DNA of 64,000 nt from Magnetovibrionaceae bacterium (GCA_049603795.1 JBMYSY010000006.1:307-64306), one strand, 5' to 3'. Shown: positions 7,742 through 31,709, counted from the stretch's first letter. Made by a program: numbers and translations. Notes: generated by a model not told the origin, from the letters alone.

Positions 7742-7756
7742 GTTCGTTTTTTGTTC
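7742..7756. promoter_or_regulatory. alphaproteobacterial-type LexA (SOS) box GTTC-N7-GTTC
   Basis: GTTCGTTTTTTGTTC read directly in the uvrA-ssb divergent intergenic region, about 147 nt upstream of the ssb ATG. It matches the GTTC-N7-GTTC direct-repeat consensus described for Alphaproteobacteria. Confidence 0.6.
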
Positions 7757-7902
7757 TTGAGTTGAGTGAGCTTTTCGGTCAGGGTTCCGGTTCGGGTTTC
7801 CGACTGGTCGGAGGCGAGGTGCCGCGTTAACCTTTTCTCCGACAGCTTGGCTTCGATTCGGGCCGGGCTTTACAAAAATTGAAAGCGTCGAGAGGGCAGA
7901 TC

Positions 7903-9215: not shown

Positions 9216-9834
9216 GGCTGCCGTTGATCTCCATGCCTCTCTAGAAGGACTGTCTTTCTCTACGATTTTAGCTGATCCTCCGTGGAGATTTCAGAACAGA
9301 ACAGGAAAGATGGCCCCGGAGCACAAGCGGCTGAACCGCTATGACACGATGACCTTGGAAGATATTTGTGGATTGCCAGTCGAACAGTACGCGAACGACC
9401 CTTCCCACTTATATTTATGGGTTCCGAATGCCCTTTTGCCTGATGGTTTGGCTGTAATGGAAGCCTGGGGGTTTCAGTATAAGTCCAATTTGGTTTGGCA
9501 TAAGATTAGAAAAGATGGTGGAAGCGATGGGCGCGGTGTTGGATTTTACTTCAGGAATGTAACTGAACTCGTACTTTTTGGCGTGCGAGGAAAAAACGCG
9601 AGAACGTTGCCCCCCGCTCGGAGCCAAGTAAATTTGCTGGCGACAAGGAAGCGTGAGCATTCCAGAAAGCCGGATGAATTGTATGACATCATTGAAGCCT
9701 GCAGCTCTGGTCCACGACTGGAGCTATTCGCGCGCGGACGTCGGGAGGGATGGCACCTTTGGGGCAATGAATCCGATCATTATGAGATCAATTGGGAGAC
9801 CTATTCCCATCACAGTCAGGTTGCCGCTACTTGA
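9205..9834 (+). CDS. MT-A70 family DNA methyltransferase (probable N6-adenine)
   Basis: ILADPPWRFQNR (DPPW catalytic motif), ..LYLWVPN.., ..HSRKPDELYDIIE.., LFARGRREGWHLWGNE. Overlaps the endonuclease gene by 11 nt. Confidence 0.8.
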   Translation: MTNKAAVDLHASLEGLSFSTILADPPWRFQNRTGKMAPEHKRLNRYDTMTLEDICGLPVEQYANDPSHLYLWVPNALLPDGLAVMEAWGFQYKSNLVWHKIRKDGGSDGRGVGFYFRNVTELVLFGVRGKNARTLPPARSQVNLLATRKREHSRKPDELYDIIEACSSGPRLELFARGRREGWHLWGNESDHYEINWETYSHHSQVAAT

Positions 9835-13705: not shown

Positions 13706-13935
13706 CGTGTGCGGCTGTCAGGTTAATTGGCTCGAGAGAGGTGGCTAAGCACTCGGGGGCGACTTTTTTGACCCGCATATTAGAAAAATCTGTTAGCGTC
13801 TGAGTTGTTGTCGCTTTCGGCAAATCCGGATGGTGGATCTGGCGAGCACATATTGCCCCAGGTATCATCCATCCAGATAGAGTGCATAGCCCAGTAAATG
13901 GGATAGGGTTGCCAGGCATCATCGGGGGATGGGGT

Positions 13936-16147: not shown

Positions 16148-17563
16148 TCAACCGCGCTGGCGTAGGTCCGAGGGCAGGGTGATTGTCGCCTTCAGGCCGC
16201 CCAGATCAGATTGATCCAATGCGAGGCGGCCATCGTAAAGCTCGATAATGTCGCCCACGATGGCGAGGCCGAAACCGGTACCGGGCGGTGCCTCATCCAG
16301 GCGTTTTCCCCAATTGAGCGCAGCTTCCCGGGCCTCTGGCGCGATTCCGGGGCCATCGTCCTCGACTGTCAGCAGCAGCCCTTCCGCCCCTATTTCTGCA
16401 GAAATCCGGATTGTTTCTTCCGCGTACTTGTGAGCGTTGGAGACAAGATTGGAGATCATGGCTTCCAGATCGTGGCGGGGCAGGGCAAACGACAGCTCCT
16501 CAGCACAGCGGACCTGTATATCGACGGGTGTGCGCCGGTAGACGATGGAGAAACCTTCGGCCAGGTCCTGGAGCACCGGTCGTACCTCGACCCGACGGGA
16601 ATCGCCGGATTCCGGTCCGATGGCACGGGCGAGACTGGAATACCGATTCACCAGTCCCGCCATGCGCCTGATCTGCCGGTCCAGTTTTTCCTCTTCCGGG
16701 TTGCCCTGGATGGCATTTTTCATGACGGCCAGCGGGTGGTTGATGTCGTGGGCGATCTTGGAAACGTACTTGCGCGTTCGTTCGATCAGCCTCGCGTTCT
16801 GGACCAAAAGGCCGTTCACCCGGCTCACCGCCCGGTCGAGTTCGCGGGGAAAGCGTCCTTCAATGGTCTCGGTTTCGCCGGCTTCATAGGCATCCATGGC
16901 GCGGGCCAGCCGTTGCAGTTGTCCCCGCAGGGCCAAAATCACCAGCAACATCAAACTCGAAACCACCAGCGCCAAAGGCAGGCTCGCGATCAAAACAAGA
17001 GGTTGCAGCCGTTCCGCATGACGGGCGACATAGGCGTCGTATCGATCCAGACCGATGCCGATCAGGTAGTGCACCCGGATTGGGCCGGTTGCTCCGTCCG
17101 CTCCGGCGAAGGGCGGTTGTTCATCGACAATCCGTTCCGCAAGCCGCATCGGCCCAAGTTCGGTTTCAGCCTCCCGCAGGATGAATTTCGGTGTCGGCCT
17201 GTCCAGCGAAGGGGTCAGGGTCGCGCCGGTCATACCCAGCAGGTCCGATTGATCAATGACCGCGCCGTCTTCCATGATCTGCCAGGTCCAGCCCACGTCG
17301 GGCCCACCGGGGACCGAAGAGGCCCTGGGGCGCTGGCGGGTGGCGCGAGACGGCTCGTTCGCATCGATAAAAGAGGCCGCCCAGTAGCCGCGCACCTGAT
17401 CGGAAAATTCCAGCAGTCGGGTATCGACGACGTCTGCCGAAACCTTGGCGACCGTCGCCTGAAACAGAGCCCAGAACAGAAGGAAGCTGACGGCCGTCAG
17501 GGCCAGGACCCAGAGCACGAGGCGCCCCACCAGGGTTTGCAGGACCGGGCCCAGAGGGCTCAT
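16148..17563 (-). CDS. two-component sensor histidine kinase
   Basis: Two TM segments, H-box KIAHDINHPLAVM, HATPase motifs VEDDGPGI, GTGFGLAIV. Overlaps the upstream response regulator gene by 4 nt. Confidence 0.85.
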   Translation of the reverse strand: MSPLGPVLQTLVGRLVLWVLALTAVSFLLFWALFQATVAKVSADVVDTRLLEFSDQVRGYWAASFIDANEPSRATRQRPRASSVPGGPDVGWTWQIMEDGAVIDQSDLLGMTGATLTPSLDRPTPKFILREAETELGPMRLAERIVDEQPPFAGADGATGPIRVHYLIGIGLDRYDAYVARHAERLQPLVLIASLPLALVVSSLMLLVILALRGQLQRLARAMDAYEAGETETIEGRFPRELDRAVSRVNGLLVQNARLIERTRKYVSKIAHDINHPLAVMKNAIQGNPEEEKLDRQIRRMAGLVNRYSSLARAIGPESGDSRRVEVRPVLQDLAEGFSIVYRRTPVDIQVRCAEELSFALPRHDLEAMISNLVSNAHKYAEETIRISAEIGAEGLLLTVEDDGPGIAPEAREAALNWGKRLDEAPPGTGFGLAIVGDIIELYDGRLALDQSDLGGLKATITLPSDLRQRG

Positions 17564-18246
17564 GCGCCGTCTTGCTCCGCATCGCCGAGTCTCAGGCGGT
17601 AGCCATGGCCGAACACGGTTTCGATCCGGTCCTTGCCGATCTTGTCACGCAGTCGGCTGATGAAGACCGGCACTTCATTGCCGGTCTTGGCGATGTCGCC
17701 GTCGAAATTGTGCGAGGCCAGTTCATCAGCCGAGGAGGGGCGGCCCTTGTTCACCATCAGGTAGTGCAGGATGCGGTATTCGGAGGGCGTCAACTTGACC
17801 GGCTTGCCCTCCTGCCAGACCTTGATGGACTGGGTGTCCATACGGATGCCTCCAGCCTCTAGCACGGGCTTGGTGACCGTCGGGCCACCGGAATTGACCA
17901 CGCCGCGCAGCCAGTCGAGCAGCAACTCCAGGTCCACCGGCTTGGTCAGGTAGTTGGTTGCGCCGGCCCGCACACCTTCCTTCATGTCGGCCACTTCCTT
18001 GCGGGATCCGGTCAACACGATCACGGGCATGGTCAGCCCCTTGTCGCGCCAGCGGCGAAGGACGCTGAACCCGTCCATGGTGGGCAGGCCGGGGTCCAGA
18101 ATGACCGCGTCGTAAGGGGTCTCCAGACCGTATTCCAACCCTTCCTCGCCATCATGCACCACATCGACGGCGAAAGATTCGTCGCGCAGCATCTCGGCGA
18201 TCTGGTCGGCCAGTTCGGGGTCGTCTTCCATGACAAGAATGCGCAT
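17560..18246 (-). CDS. OmpR/PhoB-family response regulator
   Basis: MRILVMEDD..DVVHDG..ILDPGLP..D.., winged-helix LTPSEYRILHYL..FISRLRDKIG..IETVFGHGYRL. Confidence 0.9.
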   Translation of the reverse strand: MRILVMEDDPELADQIAEMLRDESFAVDVVHDGEEGLEYGLETPYDAVILDPGLPTMDGFSVLRRWRDKGLTMPVIVLTGSRKEVADMKEGVRAGATNYLTKPVDLELLLDWLRGVVNSGGPTVTKPVLEAGGIRMDTQSIKVWQEGKPVKLTPSEYRILHYLMVNKGRPSSADELASHNFDGDIAKTGNEVPVFISRLRDKIGKDRIETVFGHGYRLRLGDAEQDGA

Positions 18247-18251
18247 GGCGG

Positions 18252-18740
18252 TTATCTCCTTTGGCCACCCAAGGGGCCGCCCCGGTCGGTGTTCTGCCGG
18301 AAGCCGGGCATGCTGGGTTTCACGCTCCGGCCCTCGGGCCCGCTGAAACGGCGTCCGCCGCTGGCCGAATCACCGACAACACCGCCGGTCTCCGGATCAA
18401 TGTAGACCAAAATCACCCGATCATCCGGTCTCAGAATGCGGACCTCGTAGACAAAGCCGCGACGGGTGTTGCGGATGTGGGTTCCCAGCACGCGACCCCG
18501 ATACTTAGGGTTATTGGCCAGTCGGGAGAGCGCCCCGGAGATATCGGCGCTGCGCCTGCTTTTGGCCTGAACGGTTTGGGCGAGAGACGGCCCCCCCAGC
18601 CCATACGCCTTCGCACCCATATTTGGCGCGGCCAAAGGTTTCGCGGCCAAAGGTCTCGCAACAAGGGGGGCAGCATCCCACAGAAGGAGCGCCCCTCCAA
18701 CGAGGAGCGCAAGGACGGTTCGGGCAAGCAGCTGTTTCAT
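18252..18740 (-). CDS. PepSY-domain secreted protein
   Basis: Signal peptide. GRVLGTHIRNTRRGFVYEVRILRPDDRVILVYIDPETGGVV is a PepSY-like fold signature. First gene of the PepSY-RR-HK operon. Confidence 0.65.
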   Translation of the reverse strand: MKQLLARTVLALLVGGALLLWDAAPLVARPLAAKPLAAPNMGAKAYGLGGPSLAQTVQAKSRRSADISGALSRLANNPKYRGRVLGTHIRNTRRGFVYEVRILRPDDRVILVYIDPETGGVVGDSASGGRRFSGPEGRSVKPSMPGFRQNTDRGGPLGGQRR

Positions 18741-18936
18741 CGTGATCCGGTCTACACCATTCCCCGTTAACAGGGAACTTCCGGCCCGTTAGGCGATGTT
18801 TATGGACCTTACAATCTCCTAACAGCCCCGGCATGCAATCTCAAAACGGCTTGCGTCATGTTGGTCTCCATCGCCGATCAAGCCGCGCCACTGACTGCGG
18901 CTTCACATCAGATGATTGATTGAAAGGAGACCGACC

Positions 18937-19674
18937 ATGTTGACCCGAACCCGCACCACCCTGAGGCGCATCGGATTTAGTCTTGTGGCCGCTGCCATGC
19001 TGGCGGCATCTCTGCCAATGACCGCCCAGGCCGCTCCCCCGTGGGAACGGGTCGGTTATGAAAACCATACCCATGTCCATGTCTATAACGACAATCGGCC
19101 CGATTGGAAAAAGGCCAAGAAGTGGAAAAAGTGGAAGAAGCGTCAGCAGCGACAAGCCCGCAAGCAAACCGTTGTCCACCGCGAGGTCCACAAGACCGTC
19201 AATCACTACTACAACACACCGGCTCCGCACCACCAGACCGGCAGCAACACGGCGACAAACACGGGCGGCCTCCTGGACATCAGCAAGCAGACGGGCGGCA
19301 CGATTATTGGTGCCATCCTCGGTGGCGCTGCGGGAACGCAGATCGGTAAGGGCAAGGGAAACACCGCCGCCATTGTGGCCGGTGCCGTGCTGGGCGGTGT
19401 GCTGGGCAATCAGGTCGGCAAGTCCATGGACCGCAATGATCTGGCGACCTTCAATAACGCCCTGGAGACCGCGCCGACGGGCAATCCGGTCAGCTGGACC
19501 AATCCGGACAGCGGTGTGCGCTACGACGTGACGCCGACCCGCACCTGGCAGAACGATGCCGGCGCTTTCTGTCGCGACTATTCCACCTGGGTCTTCATCG
19601 ACGGATACGAGGAAGAGGTCACCGGCACCGCCTGCCGGGACGGTAATGGTACCTGGGTTGCCCAGAATTACTGA
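18937..19674 (+). CDS. glycine-zipper / 17-kDa-surface-antigen-like outer-membrane protein with His/Lys/Trp-rich insert
   Basis: Signal peptide ..LPMTAQA, basic tract KKAKKWKKWKKRQQRQARK, Gly zipper GGTIIGAILGGAAGTQIGKG..AGAVLGGVLGNQVG. C-terminal NPVSWTNPDSGVRYDV..FCRDY..GTACRDGNGTW. ATG at 18937 with an AAGGAG Shine-Dalgarno sequence. Confidence 0.65.
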   Translation: MLTRTRTTLRRIGFSLVAAAMLAASLPMTAQAAPPWERVGYENHTHVHVYNDNRPDWKKAKKWKKWKKRQQRQARKQTVVHREVHKTVNHYYNTPAPHHQTGSNTATNTGGLLDISKQTGGTIIGAILGGAAGTQIGKGKGNTAAIVAGAVLGGVLGNQVGKSMDRNDLATFNNALETAPTGNPVSWTNPDSGVRYDVTPTRTWQNDAGAFCRDYSTWVFIDGYEEEVTGTACRDGNGTWVAQNY

Positions 19675-19713
19675 GATTCCTGGAACGCCTGATCAAGCCA
19701 GCGGGAGGTTGAA

Positions 19714-20628
19714 ATGAAACCCCATACCCTGACCAAGAGGCTGTTCGCCGGCCTGGGCTTGGCCCTTCTGGTCCATGCCGCCGCCCCGGTCGCCGTAGCT
19801 GAAGCGGCACCGGTCCGAGATGTTGCCTTTCAGGCCATGGCATCGGAGCTGCTCGACGGCCTGAAGGATGCGGATGTCCGTTCGCTTCCGGCGCAAAGCG
19901 GCTACGGCAAGCCCAGCCTTGCCGTGCAACCCTTTACCGAAGCGGCCTCGCCGGTGGGCGCACAAGCGGCCAACGGGTTCAACCGGCGCTTGCTTGCGCA
20001 TCTACAGGCCAAGGGGCGGGATAACTTCCAGTTTATTGACCGCCAGGCCGTGGAAGCCGTGATCAGGGATATCCGCAGCGACAGTTCCGATCCGCACCTG
20101 GTCGATCAGCGGATTACCGAACTGCGGGCGGCCTCCCGCGCTGACATCCTGGTGCTGGGGCATCTGGAAAGGCGGGGTGATCGACTGGTGTTGAGCTATC
20201 AGGCCGTCAATGCCGAAGATGCCCGCATCCTTGCCGTCTCACGCCCTCGGGATGTTCGGATGGCGGATCACGATGCGCTATTGGCCGAACGAAGCGGCTG
20301 GCCGAATCCGGATGAGCCCGCACCAGGCATCCAGATCCCTCCGTCCCCGCGCGCTCAGCCCGTGACACCGGTCGAGGTCGCGCCGCTCGATCTCTCTGAC
20401 ATCGACCTGGAAACCGTCTCCTTGCCCCGTCCTGCGGACTATCGCCCCCGCGTGGACGAAGCGGAGCAGCTGCTCGCCCGGAAGGGCTATGACCCCGGTC
20501 CGGTCGACGGCGTGATGACCCGGCAGACCCGCAAGGCCCTGCGCGCCTACCAGTCCGATTCCGCCCTGCCCATCAACGGCCGTTTGACCCGGCAAGTGGT
20601 GGAAAACCTCCGCCGTGACCGCCGCTAG
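19714..20628 (+). CDS. secreted protein with C-terminal peptidoglycan-binding (PG_binding_1) domain
   Basis: Signal peptide. The N-terminal domain resembles FlgO/LpoB-like periplasmic modules. C-terminal AEQLLARKGYDPGPVDGVMTRQTRKALRAYQSDSALPINGRLT is a classic PG_binding_1 signature. Confidence 0.7.
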   Translation: MKPHTLTKRLFAGLGLALLVHAAAPVAVAEAAPVRDVAFQAMASELLDGLKDADVRSLPAQSGYGKPSLAVQPFTEAASPVGAQAANGFNRRLLAHLQAKGRDNFQFIDRQAVEAVIRDIRSDSSDPHLVDQRITELRAASRADILVLGHLERRGDRLVLSYQAVNAEDARILAVSRPRDVRMADHDALLAERSGWPNPDEPAPGIQIPPSPRAQPVTPVEVAPLDLSDIDLETVSLPRPADYRPRVDEAEQLLARKGYDPGPVDGVMTRQTRKALRAYQSDSALPINGRLTRQVVENLRRDRR

Positions 20629-20656
20629 GGCGACCTTAAAGCCGAGGAGAAACCTC

Positions 20657-21133
20657 ATGATAACGCCACCTGCCGACAGCGCCACAGCAGAAAGCGCCAT
20701 GACCGAGATCGCTCTCGCGCTCGCCATGGGCTTCTTCAGCCTGATGGTCCTCACCCTGATCTCCATGGGTGCGGGCCAGCCCCAAGCGCCAGAGAAAAAG
20801 GCCGCTGACCGCTCCAGCCGGGCTGTGGTCCTGGCCGAAACCGCCGATTCAGAGCCCATTACGGGTACCGTTGAAACCGGTGACGGGGATTTCTTTGTCA
20901 TTTTTCATGGGCAACGCCTGCTCAACGAAGCGCTTGAGCCTTTGGAGACCGGGGCCATCGTGCGCCTTGCCGGGGACCGGCGGGTTGTCTTGGCGATTGA
21001 CCCGAAAATACCACTCGATCAGGCGCTAAAGGCCAGGGCGAGCATCGGTGCGCCGAACCTGGTGGTTGCACCGCTCGATCAAGCTTGGCTCGACAGGCTC
21101 GCTCAACTTCGCAAAATGGAGGCACAGCCATGA
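20657..21133 (+). CDS. ExbD/TolR-like bitopic membrane protein (tentative)
   Basis: Short cytoplasmic N-terminus, one TM (TEIALALAMGFFSLMVLTLISM), periplasmic domain ..FFVIFHGQRLL..RRVVLAIDPKIPLDQALKARASIGAPNLVVAPL laid out like the ExbD C-domain. ATG at 20657 with a GAGGAG Shine-Dalgarno sequence. Its stop overlaps the next start (ATGA). Confidence 0.45.
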   Translation: MITPPADSATAESAMTEIALALAMGFFSLMVLTLISMGAGQPQAPEKKAADRSSRAVVLAETADSEPITGTVETGDGDFFVIFHGQRLLNEALEPLETGAIVRLAGDRRVVLAIDPKIPLDQALKARASIGAPNLVVAPLDQAWLDRLAQLRKMEAQP

Positions 21134-21681
21134 GCGGTCCCTTTACGACCCGTCGCCGGGTGTTCTTAGGGCTGGCCGGGTTTCTGGCAGTCTCGACCGT
21201 CGGCCCTGCTCTCGGCCATCACACCGGGAATGGCCGGGTAAAGTTGAAAGCCGTCAGCGCAAGGCAGCGCCGCCGCATCCAACGAATGGTCGTTCGCGAA
21301 GCCCTGGATCTGGGCGTCCAGCCCTGGTTGGGGCTCGCCGTTGCCCATGTGGAATCCGACTTCAATCCAAGGGCGCTGAGCCCGGCGGGAGCCAGGGGCG
21401 TCATGCAGATCATGCCGGCGACAGCTCTCGGCGAATACGGCATCGAGGCCGATGCGCTTTGGCATCCGCGCCTGAACATCCGCATGGGCCTGCATTTTCT
21501 CAAACGCTTGATCCATCGCTACCAGGGCCGAACCGATCTTGCGCTGTCCTACTACAACGGTGGATCGCGCGTCGGGCGGCCAGGCAAGGCCCGCGTCCTG
21601 CCTTATACCCAGGCCTACGTCGACAAGGTTCATCGCCTCGCCCGGCGCTACGCCCGTGACATCGCCCTCGGGCGGGTCTGA
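21130..21681 (+). CDS. lytic transglycosylase (SLT domain) with Tat-like signal
   Basis: TTRRRVFLGLAG twin-arginine motif. SLT catalytic region LAVAHVESDFNPRALSPAGARGVMQIMP..YYNGG. Confidence 0.8.
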   Translation: MSGPFTTRRRVFLGLAGFLAVSTVGPALGHHTGNGRVKLKAVSARQRRRIQRMVVREALDLGVQPWLGLAVAHVESDFNPRALSPAGARGVMQIMPATALGEYGIEADALWHPRLNIRMGLHFLKRLIHRYQGRTDLALSYYNGGSRVGRPGKARVLPYTQAYVDKVHRLARRYARDIALGRV

Positions 21682-21710
21682 GCGACCTCATGATCGAAAG
21701 GAGACCGAAG

Positions 21711-22259
21711 ATGAAACTCGTGCACCAAACAGCTCTTCCTCTGGCCCTGATCGCAACATTGGCGGCCTGCAACATGAACAAGGCGCAGAATCCCATGGAC
21801 GGACTGGAGTTCAGGGAAGCGCGCTATCAGGAGATGATGCGCCTCAATGCCTTCGAGGCCTGCCGGGAACAGGGCCTTGAACTGGACCGACAAGCCCGGG
21901 CTCGGGGCTCCGCCGGAGCATTCCTCGCCAGCGCGGAGGTCTTGGCCGGCTGCAGCGGGGAGTTGTCTGCGGCCGCACCTCAGGGCGAAGAGGCCGAGGT
22001 GATGCGCACGGAAGCCCTGGCCATCACGAACTACATCAGGGGCGGTGATGTGGCACGTGCCCGCGCATTGTTCGATGGCTTCCGGGAAAGCTACCCCGAC
22101 CACGACCTCTACTTCGCGGACGGTTCGTCCTTCATTGCAACGACAGAGGCGCTGCTGGGCCGGTCGGAACCCCGGTCATTCGGCTCTTTCGCTGCTCTCA
22201 ACGTCAACAAGGTGATCAAGCACGAGATGCGCCGGTTGCACCGTTGGCAGGGTCGATAA
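21711..22259 (+). CDS. lipoprotein, unknown function (helical/TPR-like)
   Basis: MKLVHQTALPLALIATLAAC lipobox. The rest is predicted helical. No domain recognised. Confidence 0.55.
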   Translation: MKLVHQTALPLALIATLAACNMNKAQNPMDGLEFREARYQEMMRLNAFEACREQGLELDRQARARGSAGAFLASAEVLAGCSGELSAAAPQGEEAEVMRTEALAITNYIRGGDVARARALFDGFRESYPDHDLYFADGSSFIATTEALLGRSEPRSFGSFAALNVNKVIKHEMRRLHRWQGR

Positions 22260-22271
22260 GGAGATTTCATC

Positions 22272-23147
22272 ATGAAACCCAACAAAACCATGATCACGGC
22301 CCTTGTGGGTGCGGCTTTGATGGGCGGGACGATGACCGCCATTCCCGCAGCGGCCACCACCTGGCAGCCGACTGCCAGCGAGCGCCTGGTGAAGTTGCCG
22401 GGCAACCATCTGGAACGTGCCGTCGAGTCGGATGCCCGCCGGTCCGAACTCGGCCTCGCCATTCGGGATGCGGAAGAGCGCATTCAACTCAAAACCCAGG
22501 CGCTGGAGGATCTTCAGGGGGCCATAGATGCAGCCGACGGCGACCTTCGCACAGAACTGAATCACCTGTTTCTGCTGGAAAAGCAGGCCTATCTGAATCT
22601 GATGAAGGAAAGCCAGTCGCTGCGTCGAAAGGAGGCGCGGACGAAGCTGAAGCTTTACGAACGCCTCCTGGGCAAGATGGACCGCAAGCAGTCCTCCCGC
22701 ACCTCCGGGCAGGTTGCGCTGAAAGAGAAGCACGATGCAGCGCTCGCCCGCTTCGAACAGACCCGCCAGGCGATCGATACCAAGATCATGCAGTCCAGCC
22801 TAACGGCGGAAAGTCCCTACGCGCGGTCCTATGCCGAAAATCTGGCGGCCATCGAGAACCTGCAACGCGCGATAGACGACCATCCCATGAACCGGGCACC
22901 CGAACGTTTCGGTGTCCCCCTGACCCAGGCCGACTACCTGCGGGACCTGGTCGCGCGTCATCAGTCCGAGTTGAACATCATCGATCAGGAAAGCCAGATG
23001 CTGGGCTTCATGGCCAAGCTGGTCTCCCTCGATGCCCTGGCCCTGAGCGAGGGGATAAACGAGGCCGCCCTGGATGAGGATTGGGCGTCCCCTGAACAGC
23101 AAGAGAGTTCAATCTCTTCAGCGGTTTCGCTGTTTACCGGTTTTTGA
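22272..23147 (+). CDS. secreted coiled-coil protein, unknown function
   Basis: Signal peptide (..AIPAAAT). Long heptad-like charged helices (EERIQLKTQALEDLQGAIDAADGDLRTELNHL..). AAGGAG Shine-Dalgarno sequence before the ATG. The alternate-frame ORF 22244-23077 was rejected. Confidence 0.6.
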   Translation: MKPNKTMITALVGAALMGGTMTAIPAAATTWQPTASERLVKLPGNHLERAVESDARRSELGLAIRDAEERIQLKTQALEDLQGAIDAADGDLRTELNHLFLLEKQAYLNLMKESQSLRRKEARTKLKLYERLLGKMDRKQSSRTSGQVALKEKHDAALARFEQTRQAIDTKIMQSSLTAESPYARSYAENLAAIENLQRAIDDHPMNRAPERFGVPLTQADYLRDLVARHQSELNIIDQESQMLGFMAKLVSLDALALSEGINEAALDEDWASPEQQESSISSAVSLFTGF

Positions 23148-23161
23148 AAGGAGCCGAACCC

Positions 23162-23560
23162 ATGAAACACCTCCTGTTTGTCTTCTGTGTCCTGGCCTTA
23201 AGCATTCTTGCGCTGGGATTCGGTGCCTCCGCCGCTCAGGCCGGTAGCCTGGAAAATCTGGAACGCGAACGGGCGATCCTGTTGGACACCCTGCTAAACG
23301 CGGATCTTCCGGCAGCGGAACGCCAGAGCCGGCTCGAGATTTCCCGAAACCGGCTGGTAGACCTGGAACGGATGGTTATCCGGGACCCTTCCTTGGCCGA
23401 GAAGAACACGCCCATCGTCAGGGCCGCCTTCGACAACTACGATCTGACCTTCCTGGTCCATGCCTCCGTCGAGAAGGACCGCAATCTGGCGGATCATTGG
23501 CTGTCCGAAGTCGGTATCTCCAGCAATGCCATCCTAGGCGCGCGTCGGGGGCGCCGGTGA
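23162..23560 (+). CDS. small secreted helical protein, unknown function
   Basis: MKHLLFVFCVLALSILALGFGASAAQA signal peptide. AAGGAG Shine-Dalgarno sequence. No domain recognised. Confidence 0.55.
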   Translation: MKHLLFVFCVLALSILALGFGASAAQAGSLENLERERAILLDTLLNADLPAAERQSRLEISRNRLVDLERMVIRDPSLAEKNTPIVRAAFDNYDLTFLVHASVEKDRNLADHWLSEVGISSNAILGARRGRR

Positions 23561-23561
23561 T

Positions 23562-24116
23562 ATGAGCTTGCGAAAAACACCCGGCCTACTGGGCCAGTTT
23601 TCACGGACCGCAAGCTATCTGCTGGGAAGCCTGGCCATCCTGTCCGCCTCTGCAGTGGCTCTGACGTCGGGTTCTCCCGGCGACCTGTCGCGCTGGGTCT
23701 TGGAGGTCTTGGGCCTTGGCTTTGTCGGCCTGCTGTCCGGCCTGGTCTTCACCGCCGCCTTTTCCTATCTGCGCATGCAGTCCGCAGAAGGAGCGGAAGA
23801 GCGCCACTTCTGGCTCGCCTGCGGCCTTCAGGCCGCGAATGGCGTAACCACGCTGGCGCTTACCTTCACCTTGCTGGGGATCAGTCTCGGCATCGGCAGT
23901 CTGGCCGGGCGGGATCTCAATCCGGAGACAGTCCAAAGTGTGATCCGGGAACTGACCGCGAACTTCAGTCTTGCCTTCATGACCACCGTCGTCGGCCTGC
24001 CCGTCGCCGCCGTTCTGCGCGCCGGGTTGCTGATCCGGCATCAGCGCCTCGATCTCGAGGATTCCCGGCGGATTGAGATCCTCGCCCCCGCAGAGCCGAC
24101 CAAGGCTACTGTTTAG
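23562..24116 (+). CDS. MotA/TolQ/ExbB-like proton-channel family protein (minimal, 184 aa; tentative)
   Basis: Four hydrophobic segments. The C-terminal half LALTFTLLGISLGIGSLAG..(20 aa)..FSLAFMTTVVGLPVAAVLRAGLLI parallels ExbB IGLFGTVWGIMNSF....AEALLATAIGLVAAIPAVVIYN. Starts 1 nt after the previous stop. Confidence 0.5.
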   Translation: MSLRKTPGLLGQFSRTASYLLGSLAILSASAVALTSGSPGDLSRWVLEVLGLGFVGLLSGLVFTAAFSYLRMQSAEGAEERHFWLACGLQAANGVTTLALTFTLLGISLGIGSLAGRDLNPETVQSVIRELTANFSLAFMTTVVGLPVAAVLRAGLLIRHQRLDLEDSRRIEILAPAEPTKATV

Positions 24117-24125
24117 GAGCTTCCC

Positions 24126-24581
24126 ATGTCACATCTACTCTTCAACATCGCCGTTCTCGCCGCCCTGGTCTATCTGTTCGCCGGGGACCACCCGGCGGTG
24201 GAAAAGGCCATGAACCGTATGGAAACTCTGGGCTTGCAGGCAGCCTCGACGGTCAGCGGAAATCAGCCCCAGGCCCCCAGCCTCAAGCCGGGACCCCCTA
24301 AGGTACAGGAGGAGGTGCCTTCGCCGCCCGCGGCACCGGTCGAGACCATAGAAGGAGAGGGCGCTTTTGATCCTGTGATTGCCGCAGAACCAGAACGAGC
24401 CGGACCGGCTGAAGACCCAGCCGTCGCCAGTCGAAGGGAAGAGGTTTTGGCCTCGACCGGTCCGAGGCAGGCCCCGGCAGAGGCTGATCCCGGATTCATG
24501 GACCCGGCCACGCGGGCCGAGGAACTGATGCGGCTGGCCGAGGACCTGGAACTGATGGCGGCGGAACGGTGGCCACAATGA
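24126..24581 (+). CDS. bitopic membrane protein with Pro-rich periplasmic region
   Basis: N-terminal TM LLFNIAVLAALVYLFAG, then QPQAPSLKPGPPKVQEEVPSPPAAPVE. No domain recognised. Confidence 0.5.
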   Translation: MSHLLFNIAVLAALVYLFAGDHPAVEKAMNRMETLGLQAASTVSGNQPQAPSLKPGPPKVQEEVPSPPAAPVETIEGEGAFDPVIAAEPERAGPAEDPAVASRREEVLASTGPRQAPAEADPGFMDPATRAEELMRLAEDLELMAAERWPQ

Positions 24582-25531
24582 CCCGGCAAGGGGGCAGGGT
24601 AAGAGGGTTTCGGGCCTATGCTCTGTCAGGTGTAATTCTGCTGGCCTTCCTGGCTTGGCAGCAAGCAAGCTTGCCATCGGAAGAAGACAACAGGCCTCAA
24701 AATCCGGAGAAGGCGGCATTCCAGCAACCCCTTGATCATCAACCTCCGCCAGAGATCCTCCGCCAGAGGCCGGTTCGGCTTCCCCCGCCCCCAAGGTTGG
24801 CCGCTGTCCCCTCGTCGGTAGGAGCCGAATCACAGGTTAGAGCTGTTTCGCCGGTCACCAGACCTTTGCAACCCCGCGCAGAAGCAGAGGTGAAGCCCGA
24901 AACGGTTGTCCCGATCAAGCCCACCCCGAGGCCAAAGCAAACCGATATGGCGCGGACCGAAACGGGGCCGATCAAAGCGGCCAGCACGGCGGAAGATCGC
25001 CAGGACAGCCTTCCTGCTGGGCGGGTATTACTCACCTTGATGGAACATGGCGAAGGCCCCAGCATTGAAATTGCTTGGCCGGACGACCGATCGGCCTGGG
25101 CACCGCTCTATCGCAGACTGACCGGATGTCATGGTGTGACCACGGTGCTGCTGGCGGGGGATGGTCGGGTCTTTGATCAGGGCGGAACCCCGGGCCAGGG
25201 GCGCCGGTTGGACAGGGATCGCTGGAGCACCTTTATTCGCCATCCGAAAGGTGACCTGGTGCACCAGGAAAAGCGCCGGATTCAGGCTATCCGACACCGT
25301 CATGGCCTGATCGAGGCTCGCCCGGTCCGGCTCTTTCCCCGCCACGTCGATGCCGCTTTTCTCGGTCAACTGGCCGCAACCCTCGGTGGAAGCTATCGGG
25401 ATGCCGAGGTGATCCGCGCCACTTATGGCCTCGACGGGGCTACGCTGGTCGTCGGAGACATCACCGTAGACGGCAGGCCAATCAAGAGCGACATGCGCTT
25501 GGCATCTCGCAAATCCGGTTGCGGGCGCTGA
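24578..25531 (+). CDS. TonB/TolA-architecture protein (TM + Pro-rich spacer + unassigned about 190-aa C-domain)
   Basis: TM YALSGVILLAFLAW, spacer PPPEILRQRPVRLPPPPRL..KPETVVPIKPTPRPK. The C-domain is not recognisable as TonB_C. ATGA overlap with the previous gene. Confidence 0.5.
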   Translation: MTRQGGRVRGFRAYALSGVILLAFLAWQQASLPSEEDNRPQNPEKAAFQQPLDHQPPPEILRQRPVRLPPPPRLAAVPSSVGAESQVRAVSPVTRPLQPRAEAEVKPETVVPIKPTPRPKQTDMARTETGPIKAASTAEDRQDSLPAGRVLLTLMEHGEGPSIEIAWPDDRSAWAPLYRRLTGCHGVTTVLLAGDGRVFDQGGTPGQGRRLDRDRWSTFIRHPKGDLVHQEKRRIQAIRHRHGLIEARPVRLFPRHVDAAFLGQLAATLGGSYRDAEVIRATYGLDGATLVVGDITVDGRPIKSDMRLASRKSGCGR

Positions 25532-25565
25532 CAGACGGCGACGTTCGAGACTCTGGCAGCAAAAA

Positions 25566-25605
25566 CCCCCGGCGCATGTGACCCGCTGTCGGGTCGCGCC
25601 GGGGG
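25566..25605 (-). terminator. rho-independent terminator (minus-strand T-tract; may act in both directions)
   Basis: CCCCCGGCGC ..inner hairpin.. GCGCCGGGGG preceded by AAAAA on the plus strand (U-tract for the minus-strand Sel1 gene). Lies between convergent genes. Confidence 0.6.
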
Positions 25606-25673
25606 GATTCGGTTCACTTGGCGCATCCGCGCCTTAATCCTGTTTCGCGCGTCAGCGCCAGGGAAAACAGCTG

Positions 25674-26195
25674 TTAATTCGTCAACTGCGAAGCCAGGGC
25701 AATGGCTTGGGCCTTCTGGTCTTCCGTCAGGGTCGCCGAGACCTCCAGGATCATGTCTTCGGCATCCTTGTGCCCCTTTTCGCGGGCGGCAAGCAGGTAG
25801 GCATATCCGCGGACAACGTCCTGCGGGACACCGGAACCGGCCATGTAAAGGCGGCCCATGTTGAAGGTCGAGACCAGGTGACCTTTGTTGGCTGCGAGTT
25901 GGAACCACTTGGCCGCCTCGGCCGGGTCAGCATCGACGCCGCGGCCGTTGAAGAACAACCAGCCGTAATAGAACTGGGCTTCGACATGGCCGGCTTCCGC
26001 CGCTGCCTTGTACCACCGGCGGGCTTCAATCAGGTCTTTTTCGATGCCCATGCCCCGGTGATAGGCGCGGCCAAGTTCGAATTGAGATCCTGAATTTCCG
26101 TTCTGAGCCGAGGAGATAATCTGTTCAATCGGCTGTGCGCTCGCAGGCAGGGAAATGGCAAGCAAGGACAACGCCAGGATAAAGGTTTTAACCAT
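25674..26195 (-). CDS. Sel1-repeat secreted protein
   Basis: Signal peptide ..LPASAQP. Repeats ARRWYKAAAEAGH, AAKWFQLAANKGH. Confidence 0.8.
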   Translation of the reverse strand: MVKTFILALSLLAISLPASAQPIEQIISSAQNGNSGSQFELGRAYHRGMGIEKDLIEARRWYKAAAEAGHVEAQFYYGWLFFNGRGVDADPAEAAKWFQLAANKGHLVSTFNMGRLYMAGSGVPQDVVRGYAYLLAAREKGHKDAEDMILEVSATLTEDQKAQAIALASQLTN

Positions 26196-26419
26196 GATGG
26201 AATCTTTCGAACTGGTTCAGTAGGTCAGGGGTCACACGCAAAAGTCTGGGTCATAGGAAGTTGCCATCGCTGGCATCGGTTAAAGGCTGAAACCGAACCC
26301 AGCCCCGCATGAAGCCGATACCGGAAGCCCTGCGGACTCCAAATCAACTTCGCTCTTTAGATGTCCGGTTTGACCCCTGTTGTCAACTTACCCACCGGAC
26401 AGAATTGTCAGTCGGACGA

Positions 26420-27907
26420 TTATCGTTTTGTGTACCAGTCCGCAGCGGAAAAGCGCTCGTAAAGGGCTCCGGCCAGGACCTTGAAAGCGAGCGCGCTCGG
26501 GTGGCCGTCGCCGACAATGATCAATTCCGAAGGGTCGATTCCCTGATCGTCAAACAGGGTGGTGAAATCCAGAACGGGCACTCCGCGTTCGGTCAGGGGG
26601 GCGATCAGGTTAGCCTGTGCCTCGACCGAGCCGGGATAGAGCGCGACATAGCAGGCAGCACCGTCGGTTTTCGCCTCAAAAAGGCTGCAGGCCTGCGCCA
26701 AAAGGGCGGCGGCAAGTCGGTAGCCGTCCCCGGATTCGAACAAGGCATCGAAAGAGGCATTGAAGCGCTCGATCAACCGGCTGTTGGCCGCGATCGCATT
26801 CAAGAAGGCGCGCAGCGGTCGACCGGAGGTAAAGTTGCCGGCGCGTTCGACCGAGCCTGTCTCCGTCAGTCGGTAATACGGCATATGGTGGCCCCAATTG
26901 GTCACCACATGGTGGGACCCCAGGAGCCTCGGAATGTGGCCATCCTTGAACAGATAGACCGCAACAGGGGTCTGGCCCGAAGCGACAGGGCTGAGCCGAC
27001 CGGCCTCCAGGAGCGCCAGAATTTGCTGTGGGCCATAGCCGTGAAAGCCGTAATTGCGCAGTTCTGCCTCGGGCATCAGCTGGGCCAGTCGGGCGGCCAG
27101 GGTCTCGCCGTCGGCCAGGCCCTCTCCAAAGGCGAAAGAGCCGCCGAACAGGTTGATCTGGACGGTCTTGTCGCCGTCGTTACCGCTTTGTGGTGTCTTG
27201 CGGAAACCCAATTCGTTGATGGTGTAGACGGCATCGTAGACCAGTTGGTCGCCCCGGGTCTTACGGGTCGTTGCTGTGATATTGGGGTTTGCGCTGTATC
27301 CCAGGTCAGCGTCGAACCGGAAATAGCTTTGATAGTAGGTGCCTTCGGTCCGAACAGGGCCTTTGGGTTGGGATGGCCTGCCTTCTGATTCCTGGCCTGC
27401 GCTAGCAGGTGCTGACGAAGTCTCAGGCAGCAGGCGCGCGGCCCCTTCCGCTGCGCCGATCAAGCCGAAAAGAAGGGCCGCGTTGGCCGCAATGACGATT
27501 GATCCCGAAGCGAGGACCATGCTCAAAACCAGGACCAAGAGGCCGCCACCGACAAAGATCAACATCCGGTCCGGTGTCAGCTGAATGTCCGGATGAAAGA
27601 CGGCAAAACCCAGAACGGTCAGGGCCATCGGCAGGGCGCACAAGCCAAACAGCTGAAACATGCGGCGTCCCGGCCGGAGATTTCGTTCCAGTGATCGCGC
27701 GGTCCGGGGGGCAATCAGCAGAAGGCTCGCGGCCAAAGTCAGGGCGACGACGACGACCGCCATTTGTTCGTAGGGTCCGAAAGCGGGGTCGCCGATGCCA
27801 AACTTCGGCCCCAGCAGGATCACAGCCAGAACCAGGAGTGATCCGCAGATACCCATCGCAGCAACCAGGCGGACGAAAATCACAAGGCTGAAGAGGTTTT
27901 TCGCCAT
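26420..27907 (-). CDS. polytopic membrane protein with C-terminal SGNH/AlgJ-AlgX-like domain
   Basis: Four or five N-terminal TM helices. Block I-like INLFGGSFAFGEG and block V-like IIVGDGHPSALA. ATG at 27907; the 56-codon upstream extension in the track was rejected. Confidence 0.55.
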   Translation of the reverse strand: MAKNLFSLVIFVRLVAAMGICGSLLVLAVILLGPKFGIGDPAFGPYEQMAVVVVALTLAASLLLIAPRTARSLERNLRPGRRMFQLFGLCALPMALTVLGFAVFHPDIQLTPDRMLIFVGGGLLVLVLSMVLASGSIVIAANAALLFGLIGAAEGAARLLPETSSAPASAGQESEGRPSQPKGPVRTEGTYYQSYFRFDADLGYSANPNITATTRKTRGDQLVYDAVYTINELGFRKTPQSGNDGDKTVQINLFGGSFAFGEGLADGETLAARLAQLMPEAELRNYGFHGYGPQQILALLEAGRLSPVASGQTPVAVYLFKDGHIPRLLGSHHVVTNWGHHMPYYRLTETGSVERAGNFTSGRPLRAFLNAIAANSRLIERFNASFDALFESGDGYRLAAALLAQACSLFEAKTDGAACYVALYPGSVEAQANLIAPLTERGVPVLDFTTLFDDQGIDPSELIIVGDGHPSALAFKVLAGALYERFSAADWYTKR

Positions 27908-28073
27908 GGCGATGAGGGGTCTCGGATAGGGTTCGCGTTTGAAGACGTCCGCGTTCTGCGCGCGCCGGATTTTTGGGGATTTGGGCTTGTCTTCCAAGCA
28001 TTTTCTGCGTTCCCTAGCCTCATCCTCATCGCCACCCCCACGTTTTGATGCCGGGGGCCTGGAAGACGGACCC

Positions 28074-28847
28074 ATGGAAGCAAGCCTTTTCGATCAGCAC
28101 GCGCAATTGGAAGACCGGCATTGGTGGTTTACCGCCAGGCGTTCGATTCTATCCGATATCGTGGCGCGCCTTGTGGCGGGTATTCGCACGCCCAAGGTCC
28201 TGGACGTCGGATGCGGTACCGGCGGCATGACAGCCTGGATCGGGCGGCGCTGGTCTTGCACGGGACTCGACGTGTCGGAACAGGCGATTTCGCGGGCAAG
28301 ATTGCTCTATCCCGAAGCGGACTTCATCCAAGGGCGGATGCCGGAGAGCGTCGAACACCTGGCGGGTGAGGCCGATGTCTTCATGCTGTTGGATGTTCTT
28401 GAACATATCGAGGATGACCGCGCCTTCCTGGCGGACCTGGTCGCGATCATGCCGACCGGCTCTCGCCTGTTGATCACGGTCCCGGCGGACCCGGCGCTCT
28501 GGTCAGAGCACGACGTGACCGCCGGCCATGTGCGGCGATATGTCGGATCTGAACTCAGCGCGCTTTTTCAGGGGCTGCCGCTTCGATGCGATCTGCAGAC
28601 GCCCTTTAACAGCCTTCTCTACCCCATCATCAAGTTCATCCGCCAGCGAGGCTGGAAAGTGGGACAGGACGGTTCGGATTTCAGCCTGCCATCCCCGCCG
28701 GTCAATGGCACACTCAGGATGCTGTTTGCTGCCGAAGGGTTCTTCATCCGTCGCGGGTTGAAGACGGGACGCCCGGCCTTTCCCGCAGGGGTCAGCCTGC
28801 TGGCCGTTTTGACCCGTCTGCCCGATCAAGCGGAAGCCTCGTCATGA
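28074..28847 (+). CDS. class I SAM-dependent methyltransferase
   Basis: HWWFTARR.., motif I VLDVGCGTGGM, ..DVFMLLDVLEHIEDD.. ATG at 28074. ATGA overlap with the GT2 gene. Confidence 0.8.
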   Translation: MEASLFDQHAQLEDRHWWFTARRSILSDIVARLVAGIRTPKVLDVGCGTGGMTAWIGRRWSCTGLDVSEQAISRARLLYPEADFIQGRMPESVEHLAGEADVFMLLDVLEHIEDDRAFLADLVAIMPTGSRLLITVPADPALWSEHDVTAGHVRRYVGSELSALFQGLPLRCDLQTPFNSLLYPIIKFIRQRGWKVGQDGSDFSLPSPPVNGTLRMLFAAEGFFIRRGLKTGRPAFPAGVSLLAVLTRLPDQAEASS

Positions 28848-29881
28848 CAAGCCCTGGCGCAAAGCCGGATGTGAAGGGGCCGGACATTCAGGGAAAGCAC
28901 ATTGTCGTGCTGACAGCGGTCTACAACGACTGGGAATCCCTGGCTTTGCTGCTGCCGGAGATCGATCACGCCTTTGCAGGGAGTGGTGCGAGAGTGGATG
29001 TGGTCGTTGTCGACGATGGTTCCGCAGAGCGGGGCGGGCGGGACAGCATCCCGGGACTGGAACTGGGCGAAATTCGCGATATCCACGAAATCGAATTGGC
29101 CTCCAACCAGGGAAATCAGCGCGCGCTTGCCATTGGCGTGGCGCATATCGCCGAAAACCTGCCTTGCGATTATCTTGTCGTGATGGATGCCGACCACGAG
29201 GACAAGCCCGAAGACATTCCGTCTCTGTTGAGTGAAACATTGAGCGAAGAACAACCCTGTATCATCTTCGCCGGACGGGGCAAGCGGACCGAGGGCCGCC
29301 TGTTCGCGGCTGGCTATTCGATCTTTCGCCTGCTTTACCGGGCCCTGACGGGCATTCGCATTCAGATGGGCAACTTTTCGGTTGTCCCCGGATCCATGGT
29401 GGCAAGGCTGGCCCATCAGGCACCCCTCTGGCACCACTATTCGTCTGCGATTCTCAGATCCAAATTGCCTTACCGGGTGGTTCCGAAGGCGCGGGGTACC
29501 CGCAGGCTTGGCCAGAGCGGCATGAACCCGTTGCGGCTGATCGTCCATGCCTTCAGCGGCCTGACGGTTTTCGCCGATATCGCGGCTGTCCGTCTGATCC
29601 TGACGTCCATCGTGCTTGCCGGCCTGGTGCTGACCGGCGCGATCGTCGTGGCGCTGTTGAAACTCGGTACCGATTTGCCGATTGTCGGCTGGACCTCGAT
29701 TTTCGCCGGGATCCTCTTGGTCATGGTGGCTCAGGCGCTGGCGGCTTCTCTCAACCTGTTGTTCATGGTGTTGTTCCTGAAAAGCCAGCCCGCGATGATT
29801 CCGGCGCATGACTACCGGCGTTTTATTCTGCGCGAGGCGTCGCTTCGCCCTCTGTCGGAGACTCCGCCGGAGCCCTCTTGA
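28844..29881 (+). CDS. family-2 glycosyltransferase, polyprenyl-phosphate sugar synthase type (GtrB/ArnC/DPM1-like)
   Basis: IVVLTAVYNDWESL..VVVVDDGS..LVVMDADHED (DxD). Two C-terminal TM helices, as in GtrB/ArnC. Confidence 0.75.
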   Translation: MTSPGAKPDVKGPDIQGKHIVVLTAVYNDWESLALLLPEIDHAFAGSGARVDVVVVDDGSAERGGRDSIPGLELGEIRDIHEIELASNQGNQRALAIGVAHIAENLPCDYLVVMDADHEDKPEDIPSLLSETLSEEQPCIIFAGRGKRTEGRLFAAGYSIFRLLYRALTGIRIQMGNFSVVPGSMVARLAHQAPLWHHYSSAILRSKLPYRVVPKARGTRRLGQSGMNPLRLIVHAFSGLTVFADIAAVRLILTSIVLAGLVLTGAIVVALLKLGTDLPIVGWTSIFAGILLVMVAQALAASLNLLFMVLFLKSQPAMIPAHDYRRFILREASLRPLSETPPEPS

Positions 29882-31526: not shown

Positions 31527-31709
31527 GATTTTTCGCTCTAGGAAGACGGCAACGCCGAGGCCGCGGAAGGTGGGCGTATAGTGACCATCGCACTGTAGGA
31601 AAGCAACACATCCACCTTGCCTGGGCTTCGCCGCCCGGCCTATCTTCTCGAGCCCATAGGTGCCATGGGGGGCACCGGGAGCCGGGCGTTCGGGTATTAA
31701 GGGTTTTCC

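Follow-up and report, generated by a model that had tools for sequence, protein, structure and literature searches.

To our knowledge, only a handful of ion-driven motor families work in the bacterial envelope, namely Mot/Pom, Exb, Tol, Agl, GldLM and Zor, and each of them revealed a new way of powering work beyond the inner membrane. In the Agl-Glt gliding complex of Myxococcus xanthus and in its Nfs paralogue, a TolQR-type motor is combined with two TonB-like, proline-rich proteins (GltG and GltJ), with periplasmic or lipoprotein parts that contain tetratricopeptide repeats (TPR), and with coiled-coil proteins. Here we analyze a cluster of nine genes, g1 to g9, at positions 19714-25531 of a 64,000-nucleotide (nt) stretch of DNA from a Magnetovibrionaceae bacterium (GCA_049603795.1 JBMYSY010000006.1:307-64306), which we call the window. 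The original prediction, which was made from the DNA alone, saw in this cluster an orphan Ton/Tol/Mot-like motor with its own peptidoglycan-handling module. With about even confidence, we consider the cluster to encode a regulated machine that spans the envelope and functions in the manner of a very divergent Tol-Pal or Ton system. We describe it as working like the MotA_ExbB, ExbD, TonB and Tol-Pal systems, and not as a member of them, because several of their defining features were tested and are absent.

The residues that drive the Tol and Ton motors have been mapped. TolR Asp23 and ExbD Asp25 are the essential acidic residue and, with TolQ T145/T178 and ExbB T148/T181, make up the essential motor residues, while the SHLS anchor motif of these systems reads S-x3-H-x6-L-x3-S (PMC12905483). 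According to PMC12505986, the genes for the A (TolQ/ExbB-type) and B (TolR/ExbD-type) subunits of known motors are typically adjacent.

Organization of the cluster

All nine genes are on the + strand, and the gaps between them from g1 to g9 are 28, -4, 29, 12, 14, 1, 9 and -4 nt. For this we used the gene starts that are backed by orthologues and by an independent public gene call. Two ATGA start/stop overlaps, at 21130-21133 (g2/g3) and 24578-24581 (g8/g9), can be read directly in the DNA. Most of the starts are preceded by a GGAG or AGGAG Shine-Dalgarno sequence and a consensus scan revealed no convincing internal terminator within g1-g9. The prediction had proposed that nine co-directional reading frames with gaps of -4 to +29 nt form a single operon of envelope proteins, in an order that differs from exbBD-tonB, tolQRA-tolB-pal and motAB. 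The reading frames and overlaps are all present as described, the difference in gene order was borne out, and a single operon is backed by the tight gaps, the overlaps and the absence of a convincing internal terminator. However, the operon is larger than the nine genes first noted. It is a ten-gene operon, g0-g9, that encodes envelope proteins only, with g0 as its probable first gene. The unit as a whole also takes in an operator-like element and a two-component system transcribed in the opposite direction, none of which had been noted in the prediction.

The GC content of the cluster (0.61-0.64) is the same as that of its flanks. A scan of 18000-26500 against Rfam returned no RNA family. Comparison of the cluster proteins with each other, for instance of the g9 C-terminus with g2, revealed no paralogy beyond signal-peptide likeness.

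Candidate motor subunits g2 and g7

g2 (20657-21133) encodes a bitopic protein of 158 amino acids (aa) that is a candidate TolR/ExbD-like subunit. It has a short cytoplasmic N-terminus, a transmembrane (TM) helix, a disordered linker and a periplasmic domain. The helix, NAMTEIALALAMGFFSxMVLT, is near-invariant, with 15 invariant positions among 48 relatives whose identity to the window protein is 33-51%. Glu17, near the cytoplasmic end of helix M15-G38, is invariant in 48/48 of these relatives, and the motif MTE[IVL]AL occurs in 48 of the 60 orthologues from the loci. ExbD and TolR are characterized by one TM helix at the N-terminus that carries an essential acidic residue close to its cytoplasmic end, and g2 has such a helix, with Glu as the acidic residue; Glu17 is at the position of ExbD Asp25 and TolR Asp23 (PMC12905483).

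The AlphaFold model of g2 has a predicted local distance difference test (pLDDT) score of 85-95 over residues 71-158, which are arranged in the order beta-beta-alpha-beta-alpha-beta-alpha. When this model was compared with the PDB using Foldseek, the top four matches were TolR (5by4) and ExbD (8vgd, 8p9r and 8vgc). The match with 5by4 had a probability of 0.98 and an E-value of 0.042, and those with the ExbD entries had target-normalised template modelling scores of 0.60-0.61 with root-mean-square deviations (rmsd) of 2.8-3.0 Å over 72-75 columns; no Foldseek match reached E 0.001.

g7 (23562-24116) encodes a 184-aa inner-membrane protein with four TM helices that is a candidate MotA/TolQ/ExbB-like channel subunit. 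Its hydrophobic segments are at residues 16-35, 44-70, 94-116 and 133-158. The spacing between TM2 and TM3 is only about 20 residues and, therefore, a cytoplasmic domain is absent. The best-conserved part of the protein is TM3-TM4, which has invariant Thr, Gly and Pro positions. The AlphaFold model (pLDDT 88) matched PomA, TolQ, ExbB or MotA in all of its top 19 Foldseek hits in the PDB, at E-values of 0.11-0.54. With the Pfam family MotA_ExbB (PF01618), g7 scored 10.4 bits (E 0.55) compared to a cut-off of 22.9. This family was matched below threshold by 25 of the 80 g7 relatives (best E 0.022), and any other family by at most five. The ZorA models of PADLOC matched g7 at E 0.006-0.09.

We also compared profiles with profiles using hhalign, with verified TolQ/ExbB sequences and annotated exbB/tolQ-exbD/tolR plasmid loci as references. 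An early reference of three TolQ/ExbB sequences aligned over only 10 columns. The search for TolQ homologues returned only close Enterobacterales and Acinetobacter sequences and this reference stayed shallow; no genuine tolQ or exbB genes were found in the window or in 86 loci. With a TolQ-only reference, TM3-TM4 of g7 aligned to TM2-TM3 of TolQ at P 0.26. In this alignment the invariant g7 residues T103 and T142 are opposite TolQ T145 and T178, and G145-L146 is opposite G181-L182. With the diverse references, g7 gave P 0.037 against the A subunits and g2 gave P 0.013 against the B subunits, and each was the best of the nine cluster proteins against its own reference, in the expected register. 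In the cross-controls, P was 0.32 for g7 against B and 0.56 for g2 against A. The runner-up among the cluster proteins was g8, at P 0.17 with the A reference and P 0.053 with the B reference. For scale, a phmmer search places genuine MotA at only E 0.06 from TolQ, so weak scores for g7 are expected at this distance.

Together, these signals agree with each other, none is significant alone, and the evidence for an ion-driven motor is only suggestive. The ExbD-like protein and the MotA/ExbB-like channel proposed at the outset were thus supported only weakly. The TM helix of g2 with its acidic residue, the four TM helices of g7, and Foldseek rankings headed by TolR/ExbD for one and by PomA/TolQ/ExbB/MotA for the other all fit the proposal, but neither protein reached a hidden Markov model (HMM) threshold for the corresponding family.

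Proline-rich proteins g8 and g9

The two genes that follow g7 encode bitopic proteins with a TM anchor and a proline-rich spacer, as had been predicted. In g8 (24126-24581; 151 aa), a conserved N-terminal anchor, MKFLLFNxxVxAALxYLF, is followed by the spacer (18% Pro over residues 40-110) and by a short conserved C-terminal helix; the protein had no domain match in Pfam or NCBIfam. The window protein has His3 (24126-24134) where at least 95% of its relatives have Phe. g9 (24578-25531; 317 aa) has an anchor, a spacer with 20% Pro over residues 30-140 that includes the stretch LPPPP, and, at its C-terminus, a conserved domain with a length of about 170 aa and an unknown fold. No sequence relative of g9 was found in the PDB.

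One public gene call makes g9 only 213 aa long (locus L001, 8163-8804), without the anchor and the proline-rich spacer. The start at 24578 is favoured because the orthologues are 327-343 aa long and their N-terminus is conserved, and public annotation of the g9 family may often be truncated. Among 34 g9 orthologues, the anchor has Ser at position 13 in 31/34, Ser or Thr at position 17 in 29/34, and Leu, Ile or Val at position 24 in 31/34. Neither g8, g9 nor these 34 orthologues matched TonB_C or TolA. The likeness to TonB and TolA that had been proposed for the two proteins thus extends to the anchor and the spacer, but not to a TonB_C or TolA domain or, in g9, to the SHLS motif.

Peptidoglycan-related, lipoprotein and secreted components

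HMM scans of the nine proteins against Pfam, NCBIfam and PADLOC gave only SLT and PG_binding_1 above threshold and, when g0 was included, the only assignments at curated thresholds were g0 (glycine zipper), g1 (PG_binding_1) and g3 (SLT). Peptidoglycan binding and peptidoglycan cutting, both of which had been predicted, are therefore encoded in the cluster. g1 (19714-20628; 304 aa) is a secreted protein with PG_binding_1 (PF01471) at its C-terminus (residues 244-297, E 5.4e-11, 42.9 bits compared to a cut-off of 23), and this domain was found in 35/35 orthologues. The N-terminal part of the orthologues matched CsgG in 12/35 (best E 2.6e-7), FlgO in 9/35, LpoB in 2/35 and TolB_N in 1/35 (E 0.16); window g1 itself had no N-terminal HMM match. 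From these matches, g1 is predicted to consist of a CsgG/FlgO/LpoB-type N-terminal domain, a linker and the C-terminal PG_binding_1 domain.

g3 (21130-21681; 183 aa) encodes an SLT-family lytic transglycosylase (PF01464, E 4.9e-20, 71.7 bits compared to a cut-off of 21.3). The predicted twin-arginine translocation (Tat)-like signal can be read as TRRRVFLG. Only 21 of the 64 orthologues have the RR motif and many carry a lipobox instead of a Tat-like signal.

g4 (21711-22259, with the longest open reading frame starting at 21690; 182 aa) is a lipoprotein, as foreseen, with an LAAC lipobox, a pattern found in 57/77 orthologues. It has a weak TPR-like repeat; TPR_6 was matched below threshold in 10/33 orthologues (best E 2.5e-4) and at E 0.01 in the window protein. 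Cysteines C27, C58 and C88 of g4 are invariant, and a profile search found no sequence relative in the PDB. Both g5 and g6 have N-terminal signal-like segments, consistent with the secretion proposed for them. g5 (22272-23147; 291 aa) is a secreted, probably helical protein of an undescribed family. It has 24 positions that are invariant in 37 orthologues and no consistent match in Pfam, NCBIfam or the PDB. g6 (23162-23560; 132 aa) also belongs to an undescribed family, with no match in Pfam, NCBIfam or PDB sequences, and is the best conserved of the unassigned cluster proteins (44-71% identity).

Conservation across genomes

The g7 family has 989 relatives in a collection of 5.8 billion proteins, none of which has a Pfam domain. 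When one genome per species was scanned, relatives were found in 256 species. The carriers are nearly all marine Alphaproteobacteria, including Terasakiella, Curvivirga, Sneathiella and other Sneathiellales, Kiloniellales, Magnetovibrio, Thalassobaculaceae and many metagenome-assembled genomes of Rhodospirillales; Maricaulis is among the g7 relatives by protein name only.

Gene content was compared in 51 species in which the sequence extends at least 9 kb to the upstream side of g7 and at least 2.5 kb to its downstream side. Genes g4, g5, g6, g7 and g9 were present in 51/51 of these loci and collinear within 6 kb in 50/51, so that the co-conservation called for by the operon proposal is found. 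The arrangement of g1-g9 is far beyond chance, since the block recurs across at least 256 species and keeps this collinear form. The other genes were found less often (g3 in 46, g2 in 44, g1 in 31 and g0 in 29 of the loci). The fast-evolving g8 was detected by tblastn in 25/51, and a gene of 151-182 aa lies between g7 and g9 in every locus for which called genes were listed. Because the flanking genes vary between genomes and the genes downstream in the window are not co-conserved, the block is a self-contained module. These downstream genes (Sel1, methyltransferase, GT2 and membrane proteins) were considered as cluster members and excluded on the grounds that they are not conserved with it.

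The cluster comes in two forms. The short form, as in the window, was seen in 17 loci and has a two-component system adjacent to it in 17/17. In the long form (30/51 loci), three genes, x1-x3, are inserted between g3 and g4 and a lipoprotein gene, x4, follows g9. These extra genes are at 4511-8003 and 12063-12749 in locus L002 and are also seen in L009, L032, L060, L088 and others. x1 (about 550 aa) and x2 (about 180 aa) have no evident signal sequence, x3 (about 430 aa) has one TM helix and, in Terasakiella, a DUF4384 C-terminus (E 8e-12), and x4 is a GNA1162-like lipoprotein. By eye, the N-terminal domain of x3 looked Lon-protease-like (GxS...GEI...K); this is not claimed, as Pfam gave no support. 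Even around the g7 relative that diverges most among those examined, the neighbours are unchanged; there they form two divergent operons, one with g4-g9 and the other with g2-SLT-x1-x2-x3.

Upstream genes and the operator-like element

g0 (18937-19674, + strand) encodes an outer-membrane lipoprotein of the glycine-zipper/17-kDa-surface-antigen type, with matches to Rick_17kDa_Anti (E 3.4e-8), 17kDa_Anti_2 (E 2.6e-7) and Gly-zipper_Omp (E 3.2e-7). It ends 39 nt upstream of g1 and lies ahead of the cluster in 29/51 loci.

On the - strand, diverging from g0, are three genes. The first (18252..18740) encodes a small secreted PepSY-like protein that is predicted to be co-transcribed with the two-component system and is conserved beside the response-regulator gene; its PepSY match is sub-threshold (E 3.9e-4, 21.1 bits compared to a cut-off of 24). 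The second (17560..18246) encodes an OmpR/PhoB-family response regulator, for which Response_reg and Trans_reg_C are on record for an identical protein. It is 72-78% identical across the short-form loci, making it the most conserved protein of the neighbourhood. The third (16148..17563) encodes the sensor histidine kinase, whose orthologues are 50-57% identical, adjoin the cluster in each of the 17 short-form loci and have PhoQ-type HAMP (HAMP_PhoQ) and HATPase_c on record in Pfam.

The divergent promoter region between the PepSY-like gene and g0 contains a 46-bp operator-like element (18783-18828), with the core GTTAGGCGATGTTTATGGACCTTACAATCTCCTAAC at 18788-18823. Its outer arms form the inverted repeat GTTAGG...CCTAAC (15-nt arms, 80% complementary), its inner half-sites, GTTTA and TTACA, resemble a PhoP box, and a TGCAAT -10-like hexamer follows the core. 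The element occurs once in the window. A regular expression locates it in the same intergenic region of at least 11 other species, and about 15 loci show it by eye. From this arrangement, we infer that the response regulator binds the element and controls the g0-g9 operon. In the short-form loci L010, L024, L040, L054, L062, L067 and L074, a secreted protein of about 250 aa is encoded immediately after the element and before g0; this gene is absent from the window.

Comparison with described systems

No match to a characterised system was found in Pfam, NCBIfam, PADLOC, PDB sequences or the literature searched. The latter included two recent surveys, one covering relatives of MotAB and the other TonB/TolA force-transduction operons, and we found no description of the cluster in it. 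g7 and g2 are invisible to Pfam and so would easily be missed by surveys that start from recognisable motor genes.

One of the closest known systems is Tol-Pal. The cluster pairs a candidate TolQ-like protein with four TM helices (g7) with a TolR-like one (g2), adds the proline-rich, periplasm-spanning g8 and g9, and has a peptidoglycan-binding protein, g1, with a predicted CsgG/LpoB/TolB_N-type N-terminus, a TPR_6-like g4 that recalls CpoB, and the outer-membrane lipoprotein g0. All of these are envelope-located and encoded in one operon. By contrast, no cluster protein belongs to any Tol family at the HMM level, g0-g9 have no match to TolB, PD40 or OmpA, and PG_binding_1 takes the place of an OmpA-type Pal. 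The B-like helix has Glu and not Asp, the A-like protein has four TM helices and no cytoplasmic domain, and the genes for the two are apart. The cluster also adds an SLT enzyme, three proteins of undescribed families and the link to a two-component system.

Similarities to the Ton system are found in the periplasmic domain of g2, which superposes on ExbD (target-normalised template modelling score of about 0.6), and in g9, which, like TonB, has an anchor, a proline-rich spacer and a C-terminal globular domain. The anchor of g9 also has the pattern S-x3-[ST]-x6-[LIV], which parallels the first part of SHLS. The differences are that the cluster lacks TonB_C, the anchor His and any ExbB or ExbD HMM match, and that a TonB-dependent receptor is missing both from the cluster and from the large reading frames of the window.

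The Agl-Glt machinery (PMC11761067) is similar in design. It has a motor coupled to two proline-rich proteins, is trans-envelope and has an output that is neither uptake nor division, all of which the cluster may share. Even so, we detected no homology beyond a low-complexity NCBIfam match to GltJ (E 0.05). The cluster has no outer-membrane beta-barrels and far fewer parts, and its hosts are not known gliders.

Compared with MotAB/PomAB and the associated FlgO, FlgP and FlgT, likenesses are the four TM helices of g7, the FlgO matches in 9/35 g1 relatives, and the presence of peptidoglycan binding and a lytic transglycosylase beside a stator-like pair. However, g7 lacks the cytoplasmic torque-generating domain, g2 has neither an OmpA-like/MotB peptidoglycan-binding domain nor a match to the plug, and no flagellar genes were found in any inspected flank. 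g7 has weak matches to ZorA models and, like ZorAB, the cluster would provide a non-flagellar MotAB-like pair, but the ZorA tail and effector genes are absent and the context is chromosomal and core-like, not a defence island.

Proposed function and alternatives

If the cluster works like Tol-Pal or Ton, g7 and g2, with its invariant membrane-embedded Glu, would form an ion-conducting complex in the inner membrane. As g7 is devoid of a cytoplasmic domain, any work would have to be delivered on the periplasmic side. This work would pass via g2 and the periplasm-spanning, proline-rich g8 and g9 to a periplasmic and outer-membrane module that may consist of the putatively helical g5 and g6, the TPR-like g4, the peptidoglycan-anchored g1 and the glycine-zipper g0. 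The SLT enzyme g3 would make local openings in the sacculus or remodel it locally, which would allow the complex to span or reshape this layer, and the two-component system would switch the machine on. The likely output is envelope maintenance or remodelling, that is, coupling between the outer membrane, peptidoglycan and the inner membrane.

A more specific proposal, which we make tentatively and with some doubt, is that g7-g2 is an unrecognised class of ion-driven 5:2-type motor. In this class, the A subunit would be reduced to four helices without a cytoplasmic domain and the B subunit would be based on Glu, with the two encoded apart; two proline-rich transducers and a two-component system of its own would complete it. 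It would power a dedicated peptidoglycan-remodelling or outer-membrane-coupling machine, composed almost wholly of undescribed families, that is widespread in marine Alphaproteobacteria. If this is true, it adds a motor family that is invisible to HMM-based surveys, with partners that combine peptidoglycan cutting, peptidoglycan binding and outer-membrane lipoproteins.

Several results weigh against the motor and Tol-Pal/Ton-like interpretations. The acidic residue of g2 is Glu where the usual one is Asp. Pfam ExbD (PF02472) gave no match at E-values up to 10 in the 48 g2 relatives or window g2, and no curated threshold was reached for MotA_ExbB, ExbD, TonB_C or TolA. When the g2 and g7 profiles were searched against all PDB sequences, no 5:2-motor protein was found with either, and the g7 family profile, searched against 1.84 billion representatives, returned 184 clusters that were all of its own family, with no MotA or ExbB. 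Foldseek E-values for g2 and g7 were all 0.04 or worse and the g7 superpositions were poor (template modelling score 0.18-0.34, rmsd 12-26 Å). The hhalign P-values of 0.013-0.037 would fail correction for 18 comparisons. g2 is not adjacent to g7 but lies upstream of it, with four genes in between; loci L088-L090 and L078/L084 have g2 on the other strand, within an operon that does not include g7. The g9 family has no His and no conserved fourth Ser of SHLS, and window g9 has Ala13 where 31/34 orthologues have Ser (24614-24616). Finally, TolB, Pal, a TonB-dependent receptor and other known output partners are all missing from the cluster.

An explanation that we regard as rather unlikely but the best of the alternatives is that the genes are an envelope-stress or peptidoglycan-remodelling regulon that contains no motor. 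In this case the two-component system would induce structural proteins of the envelope, namely a SlyB-like glycine-zipper lipoprotein, a peptidoglycan-binding protein, the SLT enzyme, lipoproteins and membrane anchors, which would passively reinforce or remodel it. g7 and g2 would be mere scaffolds, and their likeness to TolQ and TolR would be convergent or too distant to point to ion-driven work. Only the SLT, PG_binding_1 and glycine-zipper domains are statistically secure, all of the stator evidence is sub-threshold and the A-like and B-like genes are not adjacent, each of which is compatible with such a regulon, as are the tight linkage to a PhoQ-type two-component system and the conserved operator-like element. 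However, a passive scaffold leaves unexplained why the g2 TM helix with its buried Glu is near-invariant in relatives that are only 33-51% identical, and the same applies to the invariant Thr, Gly and Pro of g7 TM3-TM4. In addition, independent structure searches of g2 and g7 each returned the matching subunit class of the same motor family, and two proline-rich, periplasm-spanning anchors typify the transmission of force or signals.

It is considerably less probable that the block is the inner-membrane and periplasmic platform of a larger surface apparatus (a secretion system, adhesin, sheath or appendage) whose main genes are elsewhere and which uses x1-x3 in most species. Ring-forming machines that cross peptidoglycan typically have a lytic transglycosylase of their own and a CsgG/FlgO-type protein, and the addition of x1-x3 and x4 in 30/51 loci would fit such a platform. 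Nonetheless, no gene for an ATPase, secretin, usher, beta-barrel or candidate substrate is conserved in or beside the block, the flanks vary between genomes and those inspected have no flagellar or pilus genes, and the short form in the window does without x1-x3.

A Zorya-like or other anti-phage defence based on a MotAB-like sensor is highly improbable, since, although ZorA models were the only PADLOC matches of note and were to g7, the nine proteins have no match to ZorB, ZorC, ZorD, ZorE, a nuclease or another effector, g7 has no long cytoplasmic tail of the kind that defines ZorA, the GC content equals that of the flanks, synteny with a housekeeping-type two-component system is stable, and the single-copy genes have a vertical-looking conservation across orders. 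A defence-island or mobile-element origin was ruled out by the composition, the synteny and the lack of effectors.

If the motor proposal fails, the cluster is still a widespread, regulated envelope module. It defines at least six unannotated protein families with conservation across hundreds of marine species. Carriers that are in culture and tractable include Terasakiella pusilla DSM 6293, Terasakiella brassicae, Curvivirga aplysinae and, probably, Maricaulis maris, and the proposal that the cluster works like Tol-Pal or Ton is directly testable because such hosts exist.

Other features of the window

The prediction had stated that the window contains no TonB-dependent receptor, TolB, Pal or flagellar gene. 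This held among the large reading frames, the only ones checked, which encode UvrA, GyrA, a PAS/hemerythrin kinase, an ABC-F protein and two proteins without a match. Downstream of the cluster, at 26420-32051, a 551-aa reading frame with multiple TM helices and a 742-aa reading frame, both without a Pfam match, surround genes for a class I methyltransferase and a GT2 glycosyltransferase, with an MBOAT gene beyond. This is probably a surface-polysaccharide modification locus and it is not conserved with the cluster. At 8427-9834, beside ssb, genes for a BglII-type restriction endonuclease (E 1.9e-44) and an MT-A70 methyltransferase (E 4.5e-29) have a GC content of 0.53-0.56 compared to about 0.61, and they are probably a restriction-modification unit inserted between uvrA and gyrA. 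The histidine kinase encoded at 13882-16113 (GC content 0.52-0.55) has several PAS domains and a C-terminal hemerythrin domain (E 4.4e-15), making it a possible sensor of O2, NO or iron.

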